Positions 7,911 to 58,215 are shown, counted from the stretch's first letter. The stretch is DNA of 64,000 bases from Candidatus Kaiserbacteria bacterium (GCA_963813065.1 CAWEXP010000006.1:55779-119778), one strand, 5' to 3'. Program-made: numbers and translations. Notes: a model not told the origin generated them from the sequence alone.

Positions 7911-9116
7911 ATGTTTTTCAAGAAGCGAACATATCTCGATTATGCCGCGGGGGCTAAAGGGAATCCGAGCTCAGCGCATGAGGAAGGCCGCAGGTCCCGA
8001 GAGCAACTCGAGGGAGCCCGCAAAGACATTGCAACTCTGACGGAGGTGAAACCAGACGACATCATTTTCACCAGCGGCGCGACGGAGGCGAATGCCATCG
8101 CCATCCTTGGGATAGGTAACTGTGAAGGTCAGACCTTCACAAAAAAACATGCGCTGTATTTGCCGAGTGCCCACGCGTCGATAGTCGAAAATATGAAATT
8201 GCTCGAGGAACGGGGAGTCGTGGTCGAGCCGTTGCCGATTAAAAATGGACAAGTTGATTGCCCAGCACTCGAAAAAATGATTCGACCGGAAACGGTGCTT
8301 GTTGCGATGGACGCGGTCTGTGGTGAGACGGGGACAATCTGGAATACGCGTGAGGTTGCAAATGTTCTGCGCGTGGCGGAGAAACGTTTTCTAGCTCCCT
8401 CGGGCCTCATCGGAATGAGTCAGCCAGTCGCGTCGAAAAGCTTTTTCCCCTCACGGGCTCTTCTGCACGTGGACGCGAGTCAGGCGCCGATGACCGAAAA
8501 GATTTCGCGCGCACATTTCTCGGCCGACACTTTGGTTTTTGATTCGGTGAAAGTCGGTGGGCCGCGTGGCGTCGGGTGCCTCATCGCGCACCGTACCATT
8601 CCCATCGCTCCCTTATATAGAGGCGGCGGCCAGGAGCGCGGCCTGCGACCAGGCACCGAGAATCCCGAGGCGGCGAGAGATTTTGCGCGGGCATTACGGA
8701 CTGCGAATGAAAACCATGATGCATTTCGTGCACACTCAACTTCGCTTAGGGCGCTTCTGCTCAAGGATTTAGCAAGGTTAAACCTTAAGAATAATGCATC
8801 AAGGTTTAACCTTGCTATAAATGCCGGCAAGGAAGTCGCTCCACACATTTTGAATATCTCTCTGCCCGGCAAGGATACCGATTATCTCGTCGCGCTCCTC
8901 GATGAGGCCGGGTTCGCCGTCTCGACGCGGAGCGCGTGCGAGACCGATTCAGAAGAGGGTTCGCGCGCGGTCTTTGCATTGACCAATGATCTCGAACGCG
9001 CGAAATCAACCCTCCGCATCTCGTGGGGACCTGCCACCTCCGACCGCGATCTTGCGCGTTTTGCCGCCGAACTCGTGCGTCAGGTCGCCTTCATTGACAG
9101 CACGGCTTCGCGGTAG
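7911..9116 (+). CDS. Class V aminotransferase / cysteine desulfurase family protein
   Basis: NifS/IscS-like layout (TSGATEANAIAI..., HVDASQA..., SACETD near the C-terminus). Confidence 0.7.
   Translation: MFFKKRTYLDYAAGAKGNPSSAHEEGRRSREQLEGARKDIATLTEVKPDDIIFTSGATEANAIAILGIGNCEGQTFTKKHALYLPSAHASIVENMKLLEERGVVVEPLPIKNGQVDCPALEKMIRPETVLVAMDAVCGETGTIWNTREVANVLRVAEKRFLAPSGLIGMSQPVASKSFFPSRALLHVDASQAPMTEKISRAHFSADTLVFDSVKVGGPRGVGCLIAHRTIPIAPLYRGGGQERGLRPGTENPEAARDFARALRTANENHDAFRAHSTSLRALLLKDLARLNLKNNASRFNLAINAGKEVAPHILNISLPGKDTDYLVALLDEAGFAVSTRSACETDSEEGSRAVFALTNDLERAKSTLRISWGPATSDRDLARFAAELVRQVAFIDSTASR
8770..8817. repeat. REP-like palindromic element inside the cysteine desulfurase CDS (17-bp inverted arms TAGCAAGGTTAAACCTT, 14-nt spacer)
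   Basis: Perfect 17-bp inverted repeat. Core AGGTT(T)AAACCT is shared with the REPs flanking the RAYT at 56974 and 57668. Reads through in frame (LARLNLKNNASRFNLAI). Confidence 0.6.
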
Positions 9117-15682: not shown

Positions 15683-16654
15683 TCAACTCTGTTTTGTTCG
15701 CTTGCCTCGCACTCGTTTGCCAGCTTGCGGAGCCACGGCTTTTTGGCGACGGGCGTACTGCCACAGTTTAGCCGAAAGGGTAGGGAGAAGTGATTCTTTT
15801 GTGCGTTCATCACGCAAAAATTCGCCGACGATTTTGTACTCGAGACCGAGTTCGTTGAGGCGTAGTGCCTGCCCGGCTCGCTCGCGAGACGGGTCGCCAA
15901 CTTCTGCGCGCACGCGGGCGACCTCTTCGATAAGTCCGCGCTCCAGAGCGCTCGCGAGTCGCGCATCAATGTGTGCGCGCAATTCTTCGCGTGGTGGATC
16001 GATCATGATCCACTCGATTTGGTATTTGGGAAGGTCCTGTTTGTTCAGGTCAGACCTAAACAGTTGCTGTTTAGGTCTGACCTGAACAGGTCGCAGAGGG
16101 ACAGAGCCGCGAGCGGCAATAATCTCGAGCGCGCGGACGAGTCGGCGACGATTCTGCGGATCGAGCTCGGCCGCGCGGCGCGGGTCGGCTGTTTGTACTC
16201 TCGCAAACAGTTCTTCGGTCGAGAGCGTTCGAGCTCGGCGCGCAGTTCTGGATTCATGGCCACACTGCCGGGCAAACCTTTCAGCAATGCATCAAAATAA
16301 AAATGCGTCCCGCCGGCGAGGATCGGCAATTTCCCACGCGCGTTATCTCTGCGATCAGTCGCTCCGGCGTCGTGGACAAAATCTCCTGCCGAATAACTTT
16401 CGATTGCGTTGCGAATATCGATAAGGTGGTGAGATATGCCACGCATTTCCTCGCTCGTGTATTTTCTCCGTGCCAATGTCGAGGCCGCGGTAGACTTGGC
16501 GTGAGTCGACCGAAATCGACCTCGCCCCCCGCGCGAGCGCTTCTTGCACGGCCCGCGCGGATTTCCCCGAGGCGGTCGGCCCGGCGATGATAAGGATTTG
16601 CTCTGCCATCAGCCGCGATGGTATCCATAAATGTATGAAAGAAATGAAAAGCAA
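15683..16654 (-). CDS. miaA: tRNA dimethylallyltransferase MiaA, split into three ORFs by two apparent 1-nt frameshifts and carrying an in-frame palindromic insert
   Basis: P-loop GPTASGKS; motifs GISHHLIDI and ILAGGTHFY; C-terminal RALEIIAARG and WQYARRQ. Frame breaks at ~16448 (AAAA run) and ~16205. Confidence 0.65.
16037..16093. repeat. Palindromic element inserted in frame in miaA (CAGGTCAGACCTAAACAG-ttg-CTGTTTAGGTCTGACCTG plus imperfect flanks)
   Basis: 18-bp perfect inverted arms with 3-nt loop, extended by imperfect pairing. Translates without a stop in the miaA frame as RPVQVRPKQQLFRSDLNKQ. Confidence 0.7.
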
Positions 16655-34234: not shown

Positions 34235-34494
34235 GTGGGTAGAGGCTTGCGCCTCTCATACGAGTTTCCCCGTATGGCCGGTAAAGACGACCCCACATGA
34301 TGGGTTTCCGCGTCTTTACCGGACTTCTCCAGCCATGCCCAGCCCGGAGGCTGAGTTTAGGCCATATCGCACCCTTGTATCGTACTCGGTCTGGAGCTTA
34401 TGTGAAGGCGGAACGTGCTTTCTACAAAAAACCAGAAACAGAAAAAACCATAGATTCTATGGCTTCTTCTGAGGTTATATTAACTGGCCTTCGG

Positions 34495-37031: not shown

Positions 37032-37331
37032 TCAATACTCCGGCTCCTGATGCTTCTTGGGGTCAACTTCCCACCAGAATTTCTTCGAGAAGTGTTTGGC
37101 GCGACTGCAGACGCTCTTCAAATAATATAAGTCGTTGGTGGGGATGCCTTCGAGGATGAGGCCAAGACGCGACATGGTGAGCGGCACGAGCCCGTCCTTC
37201 TTGCGCGAATAATTAAGATGTTTCTGGAAGAATTGCAGGAGCTCGCCGCGCTCCGTCTTCCGCTGACGCCCGCCCGGCGCTGACGCCATCTTCTTCTCGA
37301 TGTCGGGCAAAATCTCCTTGATGGACTTCAT
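37032..37331 (-). CDS. Hypothetical protein
   Basis: 99-aa basic ORF overlapping the murA start. Confidence 0.35.
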   Translation of the reverse strand: MKSIKEILPDIEKKMASAPGGRQRKTERGELLQFFQKHLNYSRKKDGLVPLTMSRLGLILEGIPTNDLYYLKSVCSRAKHFSKKFWWEVDPKKHQEPEY

Positions 37332-38632
37332 GACGTTTCAATTTCAGCACCGAGAGACTTGAGGCGCGTGACGATATCCTCATAGCCGCGGGAGATCGAG
37401 TAGACGTTGCGGAGGGTTGAGCGACCGGCGCTGCCGAGCATGGCGACGAGGATGATGGTCGCGGGGCGCAGTGCGGGCGGGCAGACGACCTCGGCCGCCT
37501 TGAGCCGCACGGGGCCGGGGATCGAGATGCGATGCGGATCGTGGAGCACGGTCTGCGCGCCGAGTCGATCGAGCTCGGTGTAATAGATCGCGCGCTTCTC
37601 GTAGACCCAGTCGTGGATAAGGGTTGTGCCCTTGGCCACGAGCGCAATGGCGGCGAAGAAGGGGAGATTGTCGATGTTGAGACCCGGATAGGGGCGGGCA
37701 TGAATTTTTTCGGGGAAGGCAGTCAGGCTCGACGGCTTCAGGTGCAGGTCGATGATCTTGGTAATGCCATTCTCTGAGACGCGTGGATTCTTGAGCGAGT
37801 ATTTCAATCCCATTTTCTCGAGAATAAAAAGTTCGGTCTCGAGGAACTCGATGGGCGCACTGCGAATGACGAGCGCTGACTTCGTCACGATGGCCGCAGA
37901 GATGAAGAACATCGCGTCGGTCGGATCTTCGGCGACGGTGTATGAAATATCTTTTTTAATCTCTCGAATGCCGCGCACCGTGAGTGTCGTCGAGCCGGTG
38001 CCCTCAATCTCGACGCCGAGCGCTTGCAAGAATCCGCAGACTTCCTGCACCTGATAATTCGCCGAGGCGTACTTGATGATGCTCGTGCCGGGAATCTTCG
38101 CGGCGGCGAAGAGGGCATTAATGGTCGCGGTGTCGCTCGATTCGTAGAGAGTCACTTCGGCCGGGTGCAGAGTCGTATGCGTAATACGGTAGCGGTCACG
38201 GAGTGCGCTGATGGCAATGCCGAACTTCTCGAGCGCGTAGAGATGCGGCCGCGCCGAACGGAGGCCCAAGGTACAACCGCCCGATTGCGGCAACTCGAAT
38301 TTTTTGAAACGGTGCACCAAGGGGCCGATGAACATCAAAATACTGCGCGTCTTGGTCGCGGCGACCTTATCAATTTTATCGAGGTTTAACCTCGATGAGG
38401 GGGCAACGATGAGGCTCGAACCGTTCCATTCCACCGAGACACCAATCGACCGCAGGACTTCGACGAGTCGGTGCACCTCCTCGATCTTCGGCACGCGCTC
38501 GAGGGTCGTGACACCATCGTTCAGTAGCGAAGCGGCGAGGAGTGCGACCGCGCCGTTCTTCGAGCGCGAGGTGATGACTTCGCCTCTCAGTTTCTTGCCG
38601 CCCTCAATCACGAAATTCATGCCGTCGGCCAT
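37328..38632 (-). CDS. murA: UDP-N-acetylglucosamine 1-carboxyvinyltransferase
   Basis: EPSP-synthase fold pattern: KLRGEVITSRSKNGAVALLAASLL..., active-site region RSARPHLYALEKFG (catalytic Cys replaced). Confidence 0.8.
   Translation of the reverse strand: MADGMNFVIEGGKKLRGEVITSRSKNGAVALLAASLLNDGVTTLERVPKIEEVHRLVEVLRSIGVSVEWNGSSLIVAPSSRLNLDKIDKVAATKTRSILMFIGPLVHRFKKFELPQSGGCTLGLRSARPHLYALEKFGIAISALRDRYRITHTTLHPAEVTLYESSDTATINALFAAAKIPGTSIIKYASANYQVQEVCGFLQALGVEIEGTGSTTLTVRGIREIKKDISYTVAEDPTDAMFFISAAIVTKSALVIRSAPIEFLETELFILEKMGLKYSLKNPRVSENGITKIIDLHLKPSSLTAFPEKIHARPYPGLNIDNLPFFAAIALVAKGTTLIHDWVYEKRAIYYTELDRLGAQTVLHDPHRISIPGPVRLKAAEVVCPPALRPATIILVAMLGSAGRSTLRNVYSISRGYEDIVTRLKSLGAEIETS
38378..38396. 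repeat. REP palindrome ATCGAGGTTTAACCTCGAT within the murA coding sequence
   Basis: 19-bp perfect palindrome identical to the core of the RAYT-flanking REPs; encodes SSRLNLDKI in frame. Confidence 0.6.
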
Positions 38633-40801: not shown

Positions 40802-41227
40802 CTAGAAAGGAATCTTGATACCAATCACGAGTGCGCTCGTGTGGCCCAGCTTGTTCTCGCCGATGAGTGGCTCGAATTGCACACCACTCACGACCCAGCG
40901 ATACGTCAGCGCATCGTAGAAGGCGTGGAACCGGCCGCTCTCAAAAGAAAGTAGAAGGTCGCGTTCGATCGGCATGCCACTCAAGTACGCATACTTTTTC
41001 TCGAGCGTACCGATGCGCCACGGCTTCTTCGCATCATAGGCCGGTGTTGACGGTTCTTGCCACGGACGATCGCGGAATTCCTTCCACGAGGGCGGCGGAA
41101 TCACGAGGTTTATCTTGTTTAAGTCAGACTTGAACAGAGTAGCGCTATGCGCACACTCGGTCGACATCGCCAGTGCGGCAATCAAGATTACAAAAAACAA
41201 AAGAGCGAGACTCAACCAGCGCTTCAT
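40802..41227 (-). CDS. Secreted hypothetical protein
   Basis: Signal-like MKRWLSLALLFFVILIAALA. Confidence 0.4.
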   Translation of the reverse strand: MKRWLSLALLFFVILIAALAMSTECAHSATLFKSDLNKINLVIPPPSWKEFRDRPWQEPSTPAYDAKKPWRIGTLEKKYAYLSGMPIERDLLLSFESGRFHAFYDALTYRWVVSGVQFEPLIGENKLGHTSALVIGIKIPF

Positions 41228-42289: not shown

Positions 42290-43030
42290 ATGCACCACGC
42301 TTTTTTCATCGAGGCGGAAGCGGAAGCGGGAACGGCACTCGCGCTCGAGAGTATCGAGCGCGAGTTGGGGATGAAGGCGGCGGGGAATCCAGACGTCGTC
42401 GTTTTGAAATATGGATTGCTCTCGGTTGAGGATACGCGACGAATTATTGAAATAGCTTCAACGAAAGCATTTGGGAAGGCTAAAACTTCCTCTGAAGGAC
42501 GTTCGCCCGACGCTTCGGGAGAAGCGTCTAGGGCGATTGTTATCGCGGCGAGTCGCGCGTATCACGAGGCGCAGAACGCACTCCTGAAAATATTCGAGGA
42601 GCCCGCGCCCGGCACACACCTATTTCTCATTCTCCCCTCAGCGGGGATGCTCTTGCCGACGCTGAAATCTCGAATGCAAATTGTGGACACGCCGTGTCCT
42701 AAATCAGATTTAGGACACGCCGTGTCCAACTTGCCGGAAGCGGCGCAAAAGTTCCTCGCGGCGACGAGCGAGAAGCGCACGGCAATTGCGAAGAAGCTCG
42801 CAACGGGCGATGACGAAGACGATCGACGTGCCAATCGTGACGAGGCGCTCGCGATTGTGAATGGCATTGAGCTCGCGGCATACCGCGCATCGAAGAAACA
42901 GCCGGACCCAGCACTCTTCGCGCTCCTCTCCGACCTCGCAATCCTGCGCACGTATCTCCACGAACGCTCGGCGCCGGTCCGTATGATTCTCGAGCACGTC
43001 GCGCTCGTGATTCCAAAAAGCTTGAAATGA
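42290..43030 (+). CDS. holB: DNA polymerase III delta' subunit
   Basis: AAA+ clamp-loader pattern ALLKIFEEPAPGTHLFLI...LPTLKSRMQ. Confidence 0.65.
   Translation: MHHAFFIEAEAEAGTALALESIERELGMKAAGNPDVVVLKYGLLSVEDTRRIIEIASTKAFGKAKTSSEGRSPDASGEASRAIVIAASRAYHEAQNALLKIFEEPAPGTHLFLILPSAGMLLPTLKSRMQIVDTPCPKSDLGHAVSNLPEAAQKFLAATSEKRTAIAKKLATGDDEDDRRANRDEALAIVNGIELAAYRASKKQPDPALFALLSDLAILRTYLHERSAPVRMILEHVALVIPKSLK
42685..42727. repeat. 43-bp perfect palindrome inside holB (GGACACGCCGTGTCC-TAAATCAGATTTA-GGACACGCCGTGTCC)
   Basis: Two copies of a 15-bp self-palindrome flank a 13-bp palindromic spacer; read in frame as DTPCPKSDLGHAVSN. Shares the CCTAAA(T)CAG core with the miaA element. Confidence 0.65.
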
Positions 43031-55189: not shown

Positions 55190-55235
55190 GAGCGTGCCCC
55201 AGCACTAACCTGGTTAGTGCTGGGCGTGATAGGAT

Positions 55236-56699
55236 GTGCGCATGGCTCTCGAAACGTTACGGGCAGAGCGGCTCGCCAAGATTGAGAAACTGCAATTGGC
55301 TGGCATGGAGGCGTATCCCGCCTCGACGCGTCGTACCCACACGGTCGAAGAATTTCTGACCAATCACGACCGCCTCATGCAGGCGGGTGAGGTCGCGGTG
55401 CTCGCGGGCCGCGTGATGAGTATCCGCGAACACGGCGGCTCGCTCTTCGTCGACCTCTTCGATGGCTCCGGCAAGGCGCAGTGCTATTTGAAAAAGGATG
55501 CGCTCGGTGATGCCGTCTATGAACTCTTCGCGAGCACCGTCGACGTAAGCGATATTATCGAGGTCGCGGGGCAGGCCTTCGTCACCAAGCGGGGCATGCC
55601 CTCGCTTGAAGCCGAGTCCTGGCGCATGCTCGCCAAGAGTTTGCGTCAGGTACCGGACGAATGGTTCGGGATTAAAGATGAGGACGAGCGTTATCGCAAG
55701 CGCTATTTGGATATTTTATTGTCGAAGGAACTGGCCGGTCGCTTCGTGCGGCGTTCGCAATTCTGGAATACGATGCGCGATTTCCTCCGCGCGCGCGGAT
55801 TCATCGAGGTCGAGACGCCCGTGCTCGAGACCACCACCGGCGGCGCCGACGCGCGCCCCTTCGCGACGCACCACAACGCGCTCGATATCGACGTCTATCT
55901 CCGCATCTCGGCGGGCGAGCTCTGGCAGAAGCGCCTCATGGTCGCCGGATTGCCGAAAGTTTTTGAAATTGGTCGCATCTTCCGTAATGAGGGCATTAGC
56001 GCCGAGCACGCGCAGGACTATACGCAGATGGAGTTCTACGAGGCCTTCGCCGACTACGAGCACGGAATGGAGATGATCACCGAGCTGTATCGCGCAATCG
56101 CCGACACCGTGTACGACACACGCGTTTTCAAAATAAAAGAATTCGATGTCGACCTGGGCAAAGAGTGGGAGCGCATCGATTATTGCGAGGCGCTGAAAAA
56201 AGAATTTGGCATCGATCCACTCGAGACCTCCATTGCCGACGTCTGTCTGACGCTCGACCAGCACAAGATCAAGTATGATCGCGACGGCTTCAACATCGAG
56301 CGCGGCGTCGACCTGCTCTGGAAGCATATCCGCAAAAATATTGGCGGCCCGGCCTTCCTCACTGGCGTACCGGTCTATCTCGAGCCCTTGGCCAAGCGGA
56401 GTCGGAAGGATCCGCGCGTCGTCGAACGCTTCCAGATCATCCTGGGCGGCTCGGAGAATGGCAAGGGCTTCAGCGAGCTCAACGACCCCGTGGATCAGGC
56501 CGAGCGTTTCCGTGAGCAACAGGCACTGCGCGAGGCGGGCGACGAGGAGGCGCAGATGACAGATGAGAGCTATGTCGAGGCGCTCGAATACGGCATGCCG
56601 CCGACCTTCGGCTTCGGCGTCTCCGAACGCCTTTTCGCCTTTTTCGAAAACGTTTCCCTGCGCGAAGCGCAAATCTTCCCCCTGATGCGTCCGAAGTAG
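55236..56699 (+). CDS. lysS: Lysyl-tRNA synthetase (class II)
   Basis: OB-fold anticodon-binding domain, class II motifs 1-3 (FRNEG, GGSENGKGFSELNDP). Confidence 0.85.
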   Translation: MRMALETLRAERLAKIEKLQLAGMEAYPASTRRTHTVEEFLTNHDRLMQAGEVAVLAGRVMSIREHGGSLFVDLFDGSGKAQCYLKKDALGDAVYELFASTVDVSDIIEVAGQAFVTKRGMPSLEAESWRMLAKSLRQVPDEWFGIKDEDERYRKRYLDILLSKELAGRFVRRSQFWNTMRDFLRARGFIEVETPVLETTTGGADARPFATHHNALDIDVYLRISAGELWQKRLMVAGLPKVFEIGRIFRNEGISAEHAQDYTQMEFYEAFADYEHGMEMITELYRAIADTVYDTRVFKIKEFDVDLGKEWERIDYCEALKKEFGIDPLETSIADVCLTLDQHKIKYDRDGFNIERGVDLLWKHIRKNIGGPAFLTGVPVYLEPLAKRSRKDPRVVERFQIILGGSENGKGFSELNDPVDQAERFREQQALREAGDEEAQMTDESYVEALEYGMPPTFGFGVSERLFAFFENVSLREAQIFPLMRPK

Positions 56700-56755
56700 T
56701 TGACAGAGTTATTACAAACGTTATACTTTACTTAGCGCCACAGAGGAGAGTTGCT

Positions 56756-56929
56756 ATGTTATTGAACAACGAATTGGGTGATCGACGGTTGCAATTGCCA
56801 GACGAAAATATGTTTCGGTATCTGGCGCCAACTATCGCGGAAATGCCAACCGACGACTCGGTCACTCCAGTTATCTTCCGGACCGCTTTCGAAATCGAGA
56901 CGGAACGGAGAGCCAGCAAACAATCCTAA
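56756..56929 (+). CDS. Small hypothetical protein (57 aa)
   Basis: GAGGAG SD 10 nt upstream of the ATG; followed by an intrinsic terminator; not in the ORF track (<60 aa). Confidence 0.35.
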   Translation: MLLNNELGDRRLQLPDENMFRYLAPTIAEMPTDDSVTPVIFRTAFEIETERRASKQS

Positions 56930-56936
56930 ATTTCAA

Positions 56937-56961
56937 GGCCGGGAGCAATCCCGGCCTTTTT
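56937..56961 (+). terminator. Rho-independent terminator
   Basis: GGCCGGGAgcaaTCCCGGCC hairpin + TTTTT. Confidence 0.7.
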
Positions 56962-56973
56962 ATATAAAACAGT

Positions 56974-56994
56974 TATCGAGGTTTAACCTCGATA
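56974..56994. repeat. REP palindrome TATCGAGGTTTAACCTCGATA (RAYT 3' flank)
   Basis: 21-bp perfect palindrome overlapping the RAYT stop. Confidence 0.7.
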
Positions 56995-57657
56995 TTCTTG
57001 ATAGTATTCATGCGCGTCAGTAATCATTTCCTCAAGAGAGGGGAGTTCCTCGTAGAGTTCAAAAACCGTCATGCCAAGGAGATGTTTTTCTAGTCGTTGC
57101 AACTTCAGAAAGTCTGGAAGACTCGAGTATCGGTACCGGATGAGTTCGTTTTTAATCTGCGATACGTTTCCGTCGCCATTTTTCCATGCAGAATCAAAGA
57201 GTTTTGCAGGATTCAGATGGACATAGGCAACCAACCGCTTAAGATACAGATCATCGTCGACAATCTTCGATTTAAACGTTCCCGCAAACAATGCGCCCGT
57301 TCGTTCATATTTAGTATTAAAGTACATCGTGTAGCCCGTACAAAGTTTTTGCATGAAGCGCGCAATGCCTCCCTTGTCTATCTCTTTAAGTACCAGATGA
57401 AAGTGGTTTGGCATCAAACAATATGCACCGATTTCTACAATGGCGTTTCCACGGTCAAAACTCGAATCAAGAATTACATCCGCCAATCTTTTGTTTTTAA
57501 GATTAGAGGTCTGTACTGGTTTTTCGCCACCGCTCGTAAAGAGGGCGAGCAGAAAACGTTCATAATCTGCAGAATCTTGATACACCAGCCGTTTATCTAC
57601 CCCACGGTTGTAGCAGTGATACCACTCATCAATTCCAAATGCCGGTCGCGTAGGCAT
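56983..57657 (-). CDS. REP-associated tyrosine transposase (IS200/IS605-like HUH Y1 transposase)
   Basis: HUH motif HFHLVL, conserved Tyr region (AYVHLNPAK), ~220 aa; flanked on both sides by the same REP palindrome. Confidence 0.7.
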   Translation of the reverse strand: MPTRPAFGIDEWYHCYNRGVDKRLVYQDSADYERFLLALFTSGGEKPVQTSNLKNKRLADVILDSSFDRGNAIVEIGAYCLMPNHFHLVLKEIDKGGIARFMQKLCTGYTMYFNTKYERTGALFAGTFKSKIVDDDLYLKRLVAYVHLNPAKLFDSAWKNGDGNVSQIKNELIRYRYSSLPDFLKLQRLEKHLLGMTVFELYEELPSLEEMITDAHEYYQEYRG

Positions 57658-57667
57658 GACCGCATCT

Positions 57668-57688
57668 TATCGAGGTTAAACCTCGATA
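57668..57688. repeat. REP palindrome TATCGAGGTTAAACCTCGATA (RAYT 5' flank)
   Basis: 21-bp palindrome, variant of the 56974 copy. Confidence 0.7.
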
Positions 57689-57786
57689 TTTAGGAGAATT
57701 ATACGAGGTGTGGATAACAGTGTTTGGGCTGGTGGGGCAAAGTGGGATATACTGCGTAGCAGTGGGAAATCGTCCCGCTCCCGTCT

Positions 57787-58215
57787 ATGTTCCTCGGCGA
57801 ATACCTTCACACTTTTGATTCAAAAAATAGAGTTTCTCTCCCCTCGAAGTTCCGAAAGGAACTCGGTCGTGTGGTGGTGGTGACGCGCGGGCTTGATCAC
57901 TGCCTCAATGTGTACTCCAAAAAGGCGTGGGAGAAGGAGGCGAAGAAATATGCCGCACAGACGAGCGGGAGCTCTGCCGAGCGCGGGCTCGCACGCCTCT
58001 TCCTCGCCGGGAGCGCCGAGGGCGAGGTCGATAGTGCTGGTCGCGTGCTGATTCCAGAAAATTTGAAGTCGTTTGCGGCCATCCGCGAGAAGGCGATTGT
58101 GGCGGGTGTCGCAGATCGGGTCGAGATCTGGGAGGAGACAGCATGGAAGAAGTACACCGCCGCTATCGAGCGCGACGCCGAGAGCTACGCCGAGAAAGTC
58201 GGCGAGCGTCACTAA
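57787..58215 (+). CDS. mraZ: Transcriptional regulator MraZ
   Basis: Duplicated DxxxR-like MraZ half-domains (LDSKNRVSLP..., DSAGRVLIPE). Confidence 0.8.
   Translation: MFLGEYLHTFDSKNRVSLPSKFRKELGRVVVVTRGLDHCLNVYSKKAWEKEAKKYAAQTSGSSAERGLARLFLAGSAEGEVDSAGRVLIPENLKSFAAIREKAIVAGVADRVEIWEETAWKKYTAAIERDAESYAEKVGERH

Follow-up and report, generated by a model that had tools for sequence, protein, structure and literature searches.

A 64,000-nt stretch of DNA from a Candidatus Kaiserbacteria genome (GCA_963813065.1, CAWEXP010000006.1:55779-119778), here called the window, contains a gene for a 224-aa protein of the HUH/Y1 type between lysS and mraZ, and this gene is bracketed by two copies of a 21-nt palindrome. 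We suggest, with a probability of about 0.7, that it is a REPtron-like unit, i.e., a single-copy Y1 gene bracketed by its cognate palindrome, with further copies of the palindrome dispersed elsewhere, and that the unit belongs to a family found across the Patescibacteria. Any specific account of how the palindromes have spread is much less certain.

A Y1 gene wrapped by two palindromes

The unit of palindrome, gene and palindrome covers 715 bp, with lysS (55236-56699) on one flank and mraZ (57787-58215) on the other. The Y1 gene, which is TnpAY1 class-2-like and encodes the motif NHFHLVL, lies on the minus strand at 56983-57657. On its 3' side is the left palindrome, TATCGAGGTTTAACCTCGATA, at 56974-56994, and on its 5' side the right palindrome, TATCGAGGTTAAACCTCGATA, at 57668-57688. 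Both are perfect and consist of two 10-nt arms around a single central base, which is the sole difference between the copies; the left copy can be written TATCGAGGTT-T-AACCTCGATA. The left palindrome is centred on the TAA stop of the Y1 gene (56983-56985) and the right palindrome ends 10 nt from its ATG, thus the gene is wrapped maximally tightly. This layout between lysS and mraZ had been described in the initial annotation and is confirmed from the sequence.

Folded computationally as single-stranded DNA, the palindrome forms a 9-bp stem with a 3-nt loop (-7.8 kcal/mol, z about -6). The window contains three matches to the palindrome pattern with at most three mismatches, compared with 0.01 expected from shuffles. 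The 5'-side copy is in what is presumably a 5' untranslated region (UTR) or operator position. Nine nucleotides upstream of it a -10-like hexamer, TATAAT (57698-57703, minus strand), can be read and may act as promoter for the Y1 gene; lacking a good -35, it was not called by the promoter scan.

The Y1 protein

The 224-aa protein matches the Pfam family Y1_Tnp (PF01797) at 30.4 bits, above the gathering threshold of 23, as do all 35 aligned homologues. Throughout these homologues (51-67% identity) H85 and H87 of the NHFH motif, Y145 and N149 of YVHLNP, and an N-terminal HC..RG motif are invariant, and the tail pair S178-S179 is kept in at least 90% of them. Y145 is the candidate catalytic tyrosine and H85-F-H87 the predicted HUH metal-binding pair, and in an alignment with ISDra2 TnpA the HUH motifs of the two proteins coincide. 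None of the catalytic residues varies, which argues for a kept enzymatic activity.

The AlphaFold2 model has a pLDDT of 91.2 and a pTM of 0.88. When the model is searched with Foldseek against PDB, the top match is 4ER8_A (E=8e-6), the Escherichia coli REP-associated tyrosine transposase (RAYT) with the hairpin of a repetitive extragenic palindrome (REP), followed by the TnpA proteins of IS608, ISDra2 and IS200. The matches (4ER8, 2A6M, 2XM3, 2VJV, 2F4F, 2EC2) indicate a Y1 transposase fold. At the sequence level, a single-sequence search of PDB with the same protein returned nothing relevant, and a profile search of PDB returned ISDra2 only, with a weak and non-significant E-value of 0.28. 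The C-terminal tail is helical in the model; no Pfam match to a Bac_DnaA_C, HTH_23 or HTH_28-like C-terminal domain was found at E<=1 in any of the 35 homologues.

Judged by sequence and model together, the protein is an HUH/Y1 enzyme with the Y1 fold, the HUH pair and a Y-x-x-x-N-P motif. The initial annotation had predicted such a protein, and the ORF (open reading frame) call, the Pfam score, the NHFHLVL motif and the match to 4ER8 bear this out; the tyrosine it had asked about is present as Y145 and does not vary among the homologues. The window contains one copy of the Y1 gene. A second Y1 gene, sought in the window as a partner for the second palindrome family described below, was not found.

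Close homologues of the Y1 protein, of MurA and of LysS all come from metagenome-assembled genomes (MAGs) assigned to Paceibacterota, Minisyncoccia or Parcubacteria. This supports a host from the Paceibacteria within the candidate phyla radiation (CPR), in agreement with the CPR-like origin suggested at the outset.

Gene and palindrome are linked across genomes

The GTDB collection, with one genome per species, was scanned for exact matches to TATCRAGGTTWAACCTYGATA, which gave 114 sites in 103 stretches, nearly all of them from Patescibacteria. The palindrome adjoins a Y1 gene in approximately 13 of the 103 loci, and the remaining loci are solo copies or doublets. A single related MAG contains four to nine exact copies. 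Single exact copies were also seen in a Nitrospiraceae chromosome, a Thermodesulfovibrionia MAG, 'Bacterium BMS3Bbin09' and a MAG labelled Gammaproteobacteria (loci L019, L068, L094 and L108); approximately one chance match is expected in the whole collection, and these copies outside the Patescibacteria may be partly real or may come from mis-binned contigs.

The same 21-mer brackets homologues with 64-67% identity both in the lysS-mraZ slot (L001-L003) and beside bipA (L004-L009), and homologues at 39-67% identity in other gene contexts share the same bracketing palindrome. Bracketing on both sides is seen in L001-L009, L030, L032, L064, L084, L086 and L093. In L001-L009 approximately 10-22 nt separate the 5' palindrome from the ATG, and the ORF runs into the 3' copy, in L001, L004 and L007 in the same way as in the window. 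A spacing of approximately 10-30 nt between palindrome and ATG is found for the homologues of L004, L007, L030, L032 and L097, and also for a paralogue in L118 that belongs with the second palindrome family.

The palindrome changes symmetrically. Stem positions 5 and 17 change jointly between genomes, from CGAGG/CCTCG to CAAGG/CCTTG, and are symmetric in 105 of the 114 sites; approximately 71 would be expected if they were independent, although the sites are related in sequence and the comparison is therefore not a probability. The stems of the 114 copies are perfect, and their flanks show only an A/T bias (AA before and TT after the palindrome) that extends the palindrome.

More distant homologues have other palindromes. 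In L032 the homologue (43% identity) has TATCAAGGTCSGACCTTGATA as its bracket, and in L076 (34% identity) TGAAGGGTTT...AAACCCTTCA takes this place; across the homologue palindromes the loop bases vary (TTAAA vs TCGGA) and the stems are kept. In L118, as well as in L115, L124, L129 and L133, two tandem Y1 paralogues have 21-nt palindromes of their own, TATCGCTGTCSGACAGCGATA and TGTTYAGGTCWGACCTRAACA. Each of these paralogues has its palindrome once just upstream of the ATG and once approximately 200 nt downstream, in frame within its own coding sequence (CDS). As far as can be read from these sequences, protein and repeat family co-vary, with one Y1 protein for one palindrome family, which is a hallmark of RAYT/REP systems (PMC6006769).

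Inverted doublets are a minority among the copies and occur at L056, L080, L090, L091 and L104. The mismatches within a doublet compensate each other, both at L056 and in the window at 16042-16088.

Two palindrome families in the window

Copies of the palindrome that brackets the Y1 gene, referred to as family A, number five in the window when at least 17 of 20 positions agree with the consensus, and none in shuffles. This corresponds to a density of approximately one per 13 kb. A search of the window for decayed family-A copies gave no excess over background at 13-15/20. The counts from shuffles and expectation reject a chance origin of the copies. A lone 10-nt half-site was not found in the window, and a model of uptake sequences with half-sites was rejected because the 10-mer never stands alone there.

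Besides the two bracketing copies, a solo copy (38377-38397, 20/21) lies in murA (37328-38632, minus strand), where it is read as SSRLNLDK. Two degenerate copies (17/20 and 18/20), starting at 8770 and 8797, i.e., 27 nt apart, cover 8770-8817 and are read as ARLNLK and SRFNLA in a cysteine-desulfurase-like CDS (7911-9116), which also holds a family-B copy. Thus the palindrome does occur elsewhere, a point on which the initial annotation had made its proposal depend, and all three dispersed family-A copies in the window are within genes.

A second family of 21-nt palindromes, family B (TGTNNAGGTCWGACCTNNACA), has the same design as family A and is found at 8121, 16042-16088 and 41116, in all cases within coding sequences. 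Its element AGGTNNNACCT occurs eight times in the window, where 0.9 occurrences are expected, each time within a 21-nt palindrome. The copy in the cysteine-desulfurase-like CDS (8121-8141) is the perfect palindrome TGTGAAGGTCAGACCTTCACA, and a variant, TGTTTAAGTCAGACTTGAACA, at 41116-41136 is read as FKSDLNK inside a 187-aa ORF. The copy at 16042-16088 is a REPIN-like inverted doublet, in which two imperfect 21-mers, mutual reverse complements, are separated by a 5-nt spacer; it lies in frame in miaA and folds as a 22-bp hairpin (-25 kcal/mol). A metagenome scan located the family-B palindrome beside a Y1 paralogue that is more distant, 13 nt upstream of it, and family B probably belongs to such a second paralogue, which, if present in this genome, lies outside the window.

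The miaA gene itself (15683-16654, minus strand) can be read through only with two frame changes, so that it is either a pseudogene or contains assembly errors. Two other long perfect palindromes with 13-bp arms and a 1-nt centre, CGTGTCCTAAATCAGATTTAGGACACG at 42693-42719 and CCCAGCACTAACCTGGTTAGTGCTGGG at 55198-55224 between greA and lysS, are members of neither family.

Palindromes within housekeeping genes

In the GTDB scan 44 of the 114 sites (39%) are contained in stop-free frames of at least 120 aa, and 29 (25%) are well inside ORFs of at least 200 aa. Ten host ORFs were checked and all are real genes: UvrB, Mfd, UvrD, LigA (twice), ArgRS, PheRS-beta, LeuRS, a glycosyltransferase and an SLT transglycosylase. 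Three of the four stop-free reading frames are used, i.e., SRLNLD (13 cases), YRGLT[SL]I (9) and SRFNLD (7), and the fourth, IEVKP, is not used at all. REPs in repair and tRNA-synthetase genes were known earlier (Di Nocera et al. 2013, PMC3733652); the gene classes that host the palindromes are therefore not new.

The effect of the palindrome on protein length differs between genes. The doublet in UvrB (L091) adds 19 aa compared with 2FDC, the copy in UvrD/PcrA (L026) 6 aa compared with 2PJR, and the desulfurase copy at 8121 in the window 2 aa compared with 4R5F. ArgRS (L060) is longer by 1 aa than 2ZUE, which reads KLNLPE at this place, and LeuRS (L095) has the same length as 1H3N. The MurA of the window also shows no change in length when compared with 120 orthologues, PPEKISLD being replaced by PSSRLNLD. 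The idea that all intragenic copies are simple 7-codon insertions was rejected, as it is true for some only.

The murA copy can be followed more closely. Its closest orthologue (80% identity) reads PPEKFALDKID, therefore the copy is lineage-specific and needs approximately eight clustered base changes. The native LDK codons of murA already equal the right end of the palindrome, and ARLNLE in two other MurA orthologues corresponds to a match of 14/21 at the DNA level. Our best guess, from the sequences, is that the length-neutral copies could have arisen by short-patch conversion or template switching off another copy, primed by microhomology. Alternatively, the murA copy might be a selected site that evolved in place.

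It can be speculated, and we regard it as rather doubtful, that these observations have a common meaning: a 21-nt palindrome, besides being inserted, would also be written over coding sequence at the same length, in preferred frames and at sites of microhomology, and each Y1/HUH protein of the Patescibacteria would have its own palindrome, perfect and near-invariant even between deep lineages, so that either a new mode of spread (conversion or template switching in place of transposition) or a function of the sites at the level of the host would be involved. If true, the host-level function could for example be the processing of single-stranded DNA or replication forks, in genomes with almost no intergenic space.

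History of the locus

Between the window and the syntenic locus L001 identity is 67% for the Y1 protein, compared with 72% for LysS, 74% for MraZ and 85% for GreA, and the palindromes are unchanged. This fits a Y1 gene that is old, constrained and largely vertically inherited, as far as sequence comparison can tell. In L137 the lysS-mraZ spacer contains no Y1 gene and instead an unrelated 274-aa ORF without Pfam hits. Among the related genomes the cargo of this spacer is the Y1 unit, a 62-aa ORF or the 274-aa ORF, and the spacer is thus a variable slot beside the dcw cluster, where loss or relocation has taken place. In L004 and L007 the Y1 gene is located beside bipA; bipA/typA, sought in the window for comparison with this alternative context, is not present there.

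A tandem duplication (15 nt) of the palindrome half-site (AAACCTCGATATTTT) adjoins the 3' palindrome, directly downstream of the Y1 gene, in L001 and L003 and not in L002, which encodes an identical protein. This difference suggests that the repeat may still be locally unstable.

Comparison with known Y1 systems

The best structural match, E. coli TnpA-REP (RAYT, YafM; subclass 2.2; 4ER8), shares the HUH/Y1 fold and the Y-x-x-x-N-P motif with the protein of the window. The likeness extends to the REPs and bacterial interspersed mosaic elements of E. coli, as in both cases a single-copy gene is flanked by its own dispersed palindrome, inverted doublets are found, and protein and repeat co-vary. 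However, the sequence identity is only approximately 14%, and the window protein is longer by a helical tail of 65 aa and, behind helix A, by an insertion of 30 aa. Canonical REPs are defined by a GT[AG]G foot (PMC6006769). The repeat of the window has no such foot and no bulged or imperfect stem, being perfect and exactly 21 nt long. There are few copies per genome, in contrast to hundreds of canonical REPs (typically more than 100, extragenic), and a quarter or more of the copies here are intragenic.

According to Table 1 of Quentin et al. 2018 (PMC6006769), subclass 2.1 is characterised by NH[YF]H, Y[IV]HLNP, an SS tail and a median length of 238 aa, subclass 2.2 by DHLH and YIHYNP, and IS200 by Y...Q. 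The counterparts of subclass 2.1 are group 1 of Bertels and, for the most part, the TIRYTs described by Di Nocera et al. (PMC3733652); the subclass has been reported to be without REP-like sequences (PMC6006769). With NHFH, YVHLNP, S178-S179 and 224 aa, the window protein fits TnpAY1 subclass 2.1 / TIRYT and not the E. coli-type subclass 2.2, an assignment made by motifs and not by a tree. The small repeat families and the repeats that overlap the end of the gene are also alike. The unit of the window differs from TIRYTs in its 21-nt palindromes, in having neither the GGGGWSAS consensus of the terminal inverted repeats (TIRs) nor, by Pfam, a Bac_DnaA_C/HTH tail, and in its CPR host. The nearest precedent is a Stenotrophomonas maltophilia TIRYT with a self-complementary TIR family (PMC3733652).

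Elements of the IS200/IS608 type (subclass 1.1) are similarly compact (approximately 700 bp), with hairpins at both ends of the Y1 gene and a 5' hairpin near the start codon. However, IS200 carries a Y-x-x-x-Q motif, is present in multiple copies and moves horizontally, and its left and right end hairpins are imperfect and differ from each other, with guide bases determining where cleavage takes place. Rickettsia palindromic elements and intragenic REPs (PMC3733652) resemble the intragenic copies described above, as in-frame palindromes are found in UvrB, UvrD, Mfd, LigA and aminoacyl-tRNA synthetases. What differs is that those elements lengthen the protein, whereas the copies in MurA, LeuRS and ArgRS replace residues, and several copies here leave the length unchanged. 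Finally, in subclass 2.4 a REP lies inside the tnpA-REP gene, and the paralogues of L118 and L129 likewise carry their own palindrome in frame in a variable loop; this copy comes after helix A, not between HUH and Y, and no internal copy of its own palindrome was found in the Y1 gene of the window.

RAYT/REP systems provide the principal bacterial case of repeat populations that are long-lived and passed on vertically, and nearly all work on them has dealt with large genomes of Proteobacteria and Cyanobacteria. Earlier surveys tied Y1 genes outside insertion sequences to larger genomes (PMC6006769), and the survey of Quentin et al. 2018, which covered complete genomes, does not mention CPR groups (PMC6006769). 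In the literature searched no description of such a repeat system in CPR was found, which is not proof of absence. Here, a related system is found in ultra-small, gene-dense CPR genomes, with a bare 21-nt palindrome as repeat that is widely conserved in Paceibacteria and often located in essential genes. It offers a simple and well-defined protein-DNA pair for the study of domesticated Y1 enzymes and a natural case of repeats shaping protein sequence. In practice, such Y1 genes should not be counted as active transposases when CPR MAGs are annotated, and the palindromes can give rise to artefacts of assembly or alignment.

Possible mechanism and alternative explanations

By analogy with E. coli TnpA-REP and IS608 TnpA, a dimer of the Y1 protein would bind the palindrome when this is extruded from single-stranded DNA, e.g., on the lagging-strand template, in the form of a 9-bp hairpin. 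Y145 would cut and rejoin DNA nearby through a 5'-phosphotyrosine, with H85 and H87 holding the metal ion, and such cutting and rejoining could create or maintain the dispersed copies and the doublets. That the Y1 protein mobilises the repeats is what we infer from these relatives. The 5' palindrome may also limit the expression of the Y1 gene, by forming a hairpin in the 5'-UTR or by binding the Y1 protein; it lies between TATAAT (57698-57703) and the ATG, therefore a throttling of the gene's own expression is plausible.

Several observations weigh against a REPtron-like unit. The window protein scores 31.6 bits with the NCBIfam RAYT equivalog NF047646, where the cut-off is 80, and the 35 homologues are matched weakly throughout (best E=2e-10). 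TnpA-REP and IS608 TnpA recognise one strand specifically by means of a guide tetranucleotide and of irregularities in the stem, both of which are missing from this repeat; neither a guide motif nor a GT[AG]G foot was found in the flanks of the 114 copies. A perfect palindrome suits a dyad-symmetric site on duplex DNA equally well. The copy number is far under that of classical REPs. The copies in MurA, LeuRS and, nearly, ArgRS replace native sequence at the same length, which insertion through transposition does not predict. In L136, which is closer to the window by LysS identity (80%), neither the Y1 gene nor the palindrome is present in the lysS-mraZ spacer, so inheritance is not simply vertical. 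The initial annotation had called the arrangement canonical RAYT/REP. The Y1 gene bracketed by its own dispersed palindrome stands, and the word canonical does not, given the NF047646 score, the missing foot, the low copy number, the intragenic position of the dispersed copies in the window and the subclass 2.1-like motifs.

We consider it unlikely that the palindrome is instead a duplex-DNA site for a dimeric binder, either a domesticated Y1 protein or another factor, that serves autoregulation and marks sites of a regulon or of chromosome organisation without cleavage or mobility. The perfect dyad symmetry with half-sites that change symmetrically, the near-fixed position between a -10-like box and the ATG, and the conservation of the sequence over many Paceibacteria lineages while the protein falls to approximately 40% identity would all be natural for such a site, as would same-length intragenic copies where the native peptide already resembles xLNLx or LDK, which is expected for evolution in place. 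However, the catalytic residues are all invariant, many copies are deep in unrelated housekeeping genes and not at promoters, inverted doublets with compensating mismatches indicate a hairpin-templated duplication, and the loop bases vary (TTAAA vs TCGGA) with the stems retained. An autonomous IS200-like insertion sequence, in which the 715-bp unit is mobile and the solo palindromes are scars or miniature derivatives, is quite unlikely. The window contains it once, and homologue clusters are, nearly without exception, on one or a few contigs; the orthologue in the syntenic L001 has diverged as much as the neighbouring housekeeping genes; the motif is Y-x-x-x-N-P, whereas IS200 has Y-x-x-x-Q; both ends are perfect palindromes and identical, in place of distinct imperfect subterminal hairpins; and approximately 90% of the palindrome loci are without a Y1 gene. 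What a mobile unit would explain is the way in which the repeats shrink-wrap the gene, overlapping the stop and ending 10 nt before the ATG, its presence in different neighbourhoods (lysS-mraZ and beside bipA) and its absence from the variable spacer of the closer relative L136.

It is highly improbable that the palindromes are signals unrelated to the Y1 gene, such as terminators or DNA-uptake-type sequences, that adjoin it by coincidence. The left copy does score as terminator-like on both strands, and the intragenic copies are found preferentially, and in fixed frames, in genes for repair proteins and aminoacyl-tRNA synthetases, like uptake sequences, although REPs in these genes are already known for RAYT-type repeats (PMC3733652). 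However, homologues with unrelated gene neighbours are bracketed in the same way, different paralogues have different palindromes, the window has no lone 10-nt half-sites, and the density is low (approximately one per 13 kb). A plain terminator role for the 21-mer was rejected, as it also brackets homologues and occurs within genes.

Neighbouring features

Between lysS and the left palindrome, the region 56700-56958 contains a promoter-like site, a 57-aa ORF and a terminator. Directly after lysS is a strong promoter-like site, TTGACA-16-TATACT (11/12), upstream of the 57-aa ORF (56756-56929), to which it belongs, and 3' of this ORF follows a clean terminator (56935-56958). This module is missing from the syntenic locus L001.

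A LOOT RNA (Rfam RF03000, 84 bits compared with a gathering score of 46.4) is located at 34241-34363 on the minus strand and adjoins tRNA-Asn.

On the other side of the Y1 unit, the region upstream of mraZ (57720-57755) contains three GTGGG-type boxes (at approximately 57725, 57733 and 57743), followed by TATACT. The arrangement GTGGGGC...GTGGGATA also precedes mraZ in L136 and L137, and the boxes with TATACT look like an MraZ operator that overlaps the dcw promoter.

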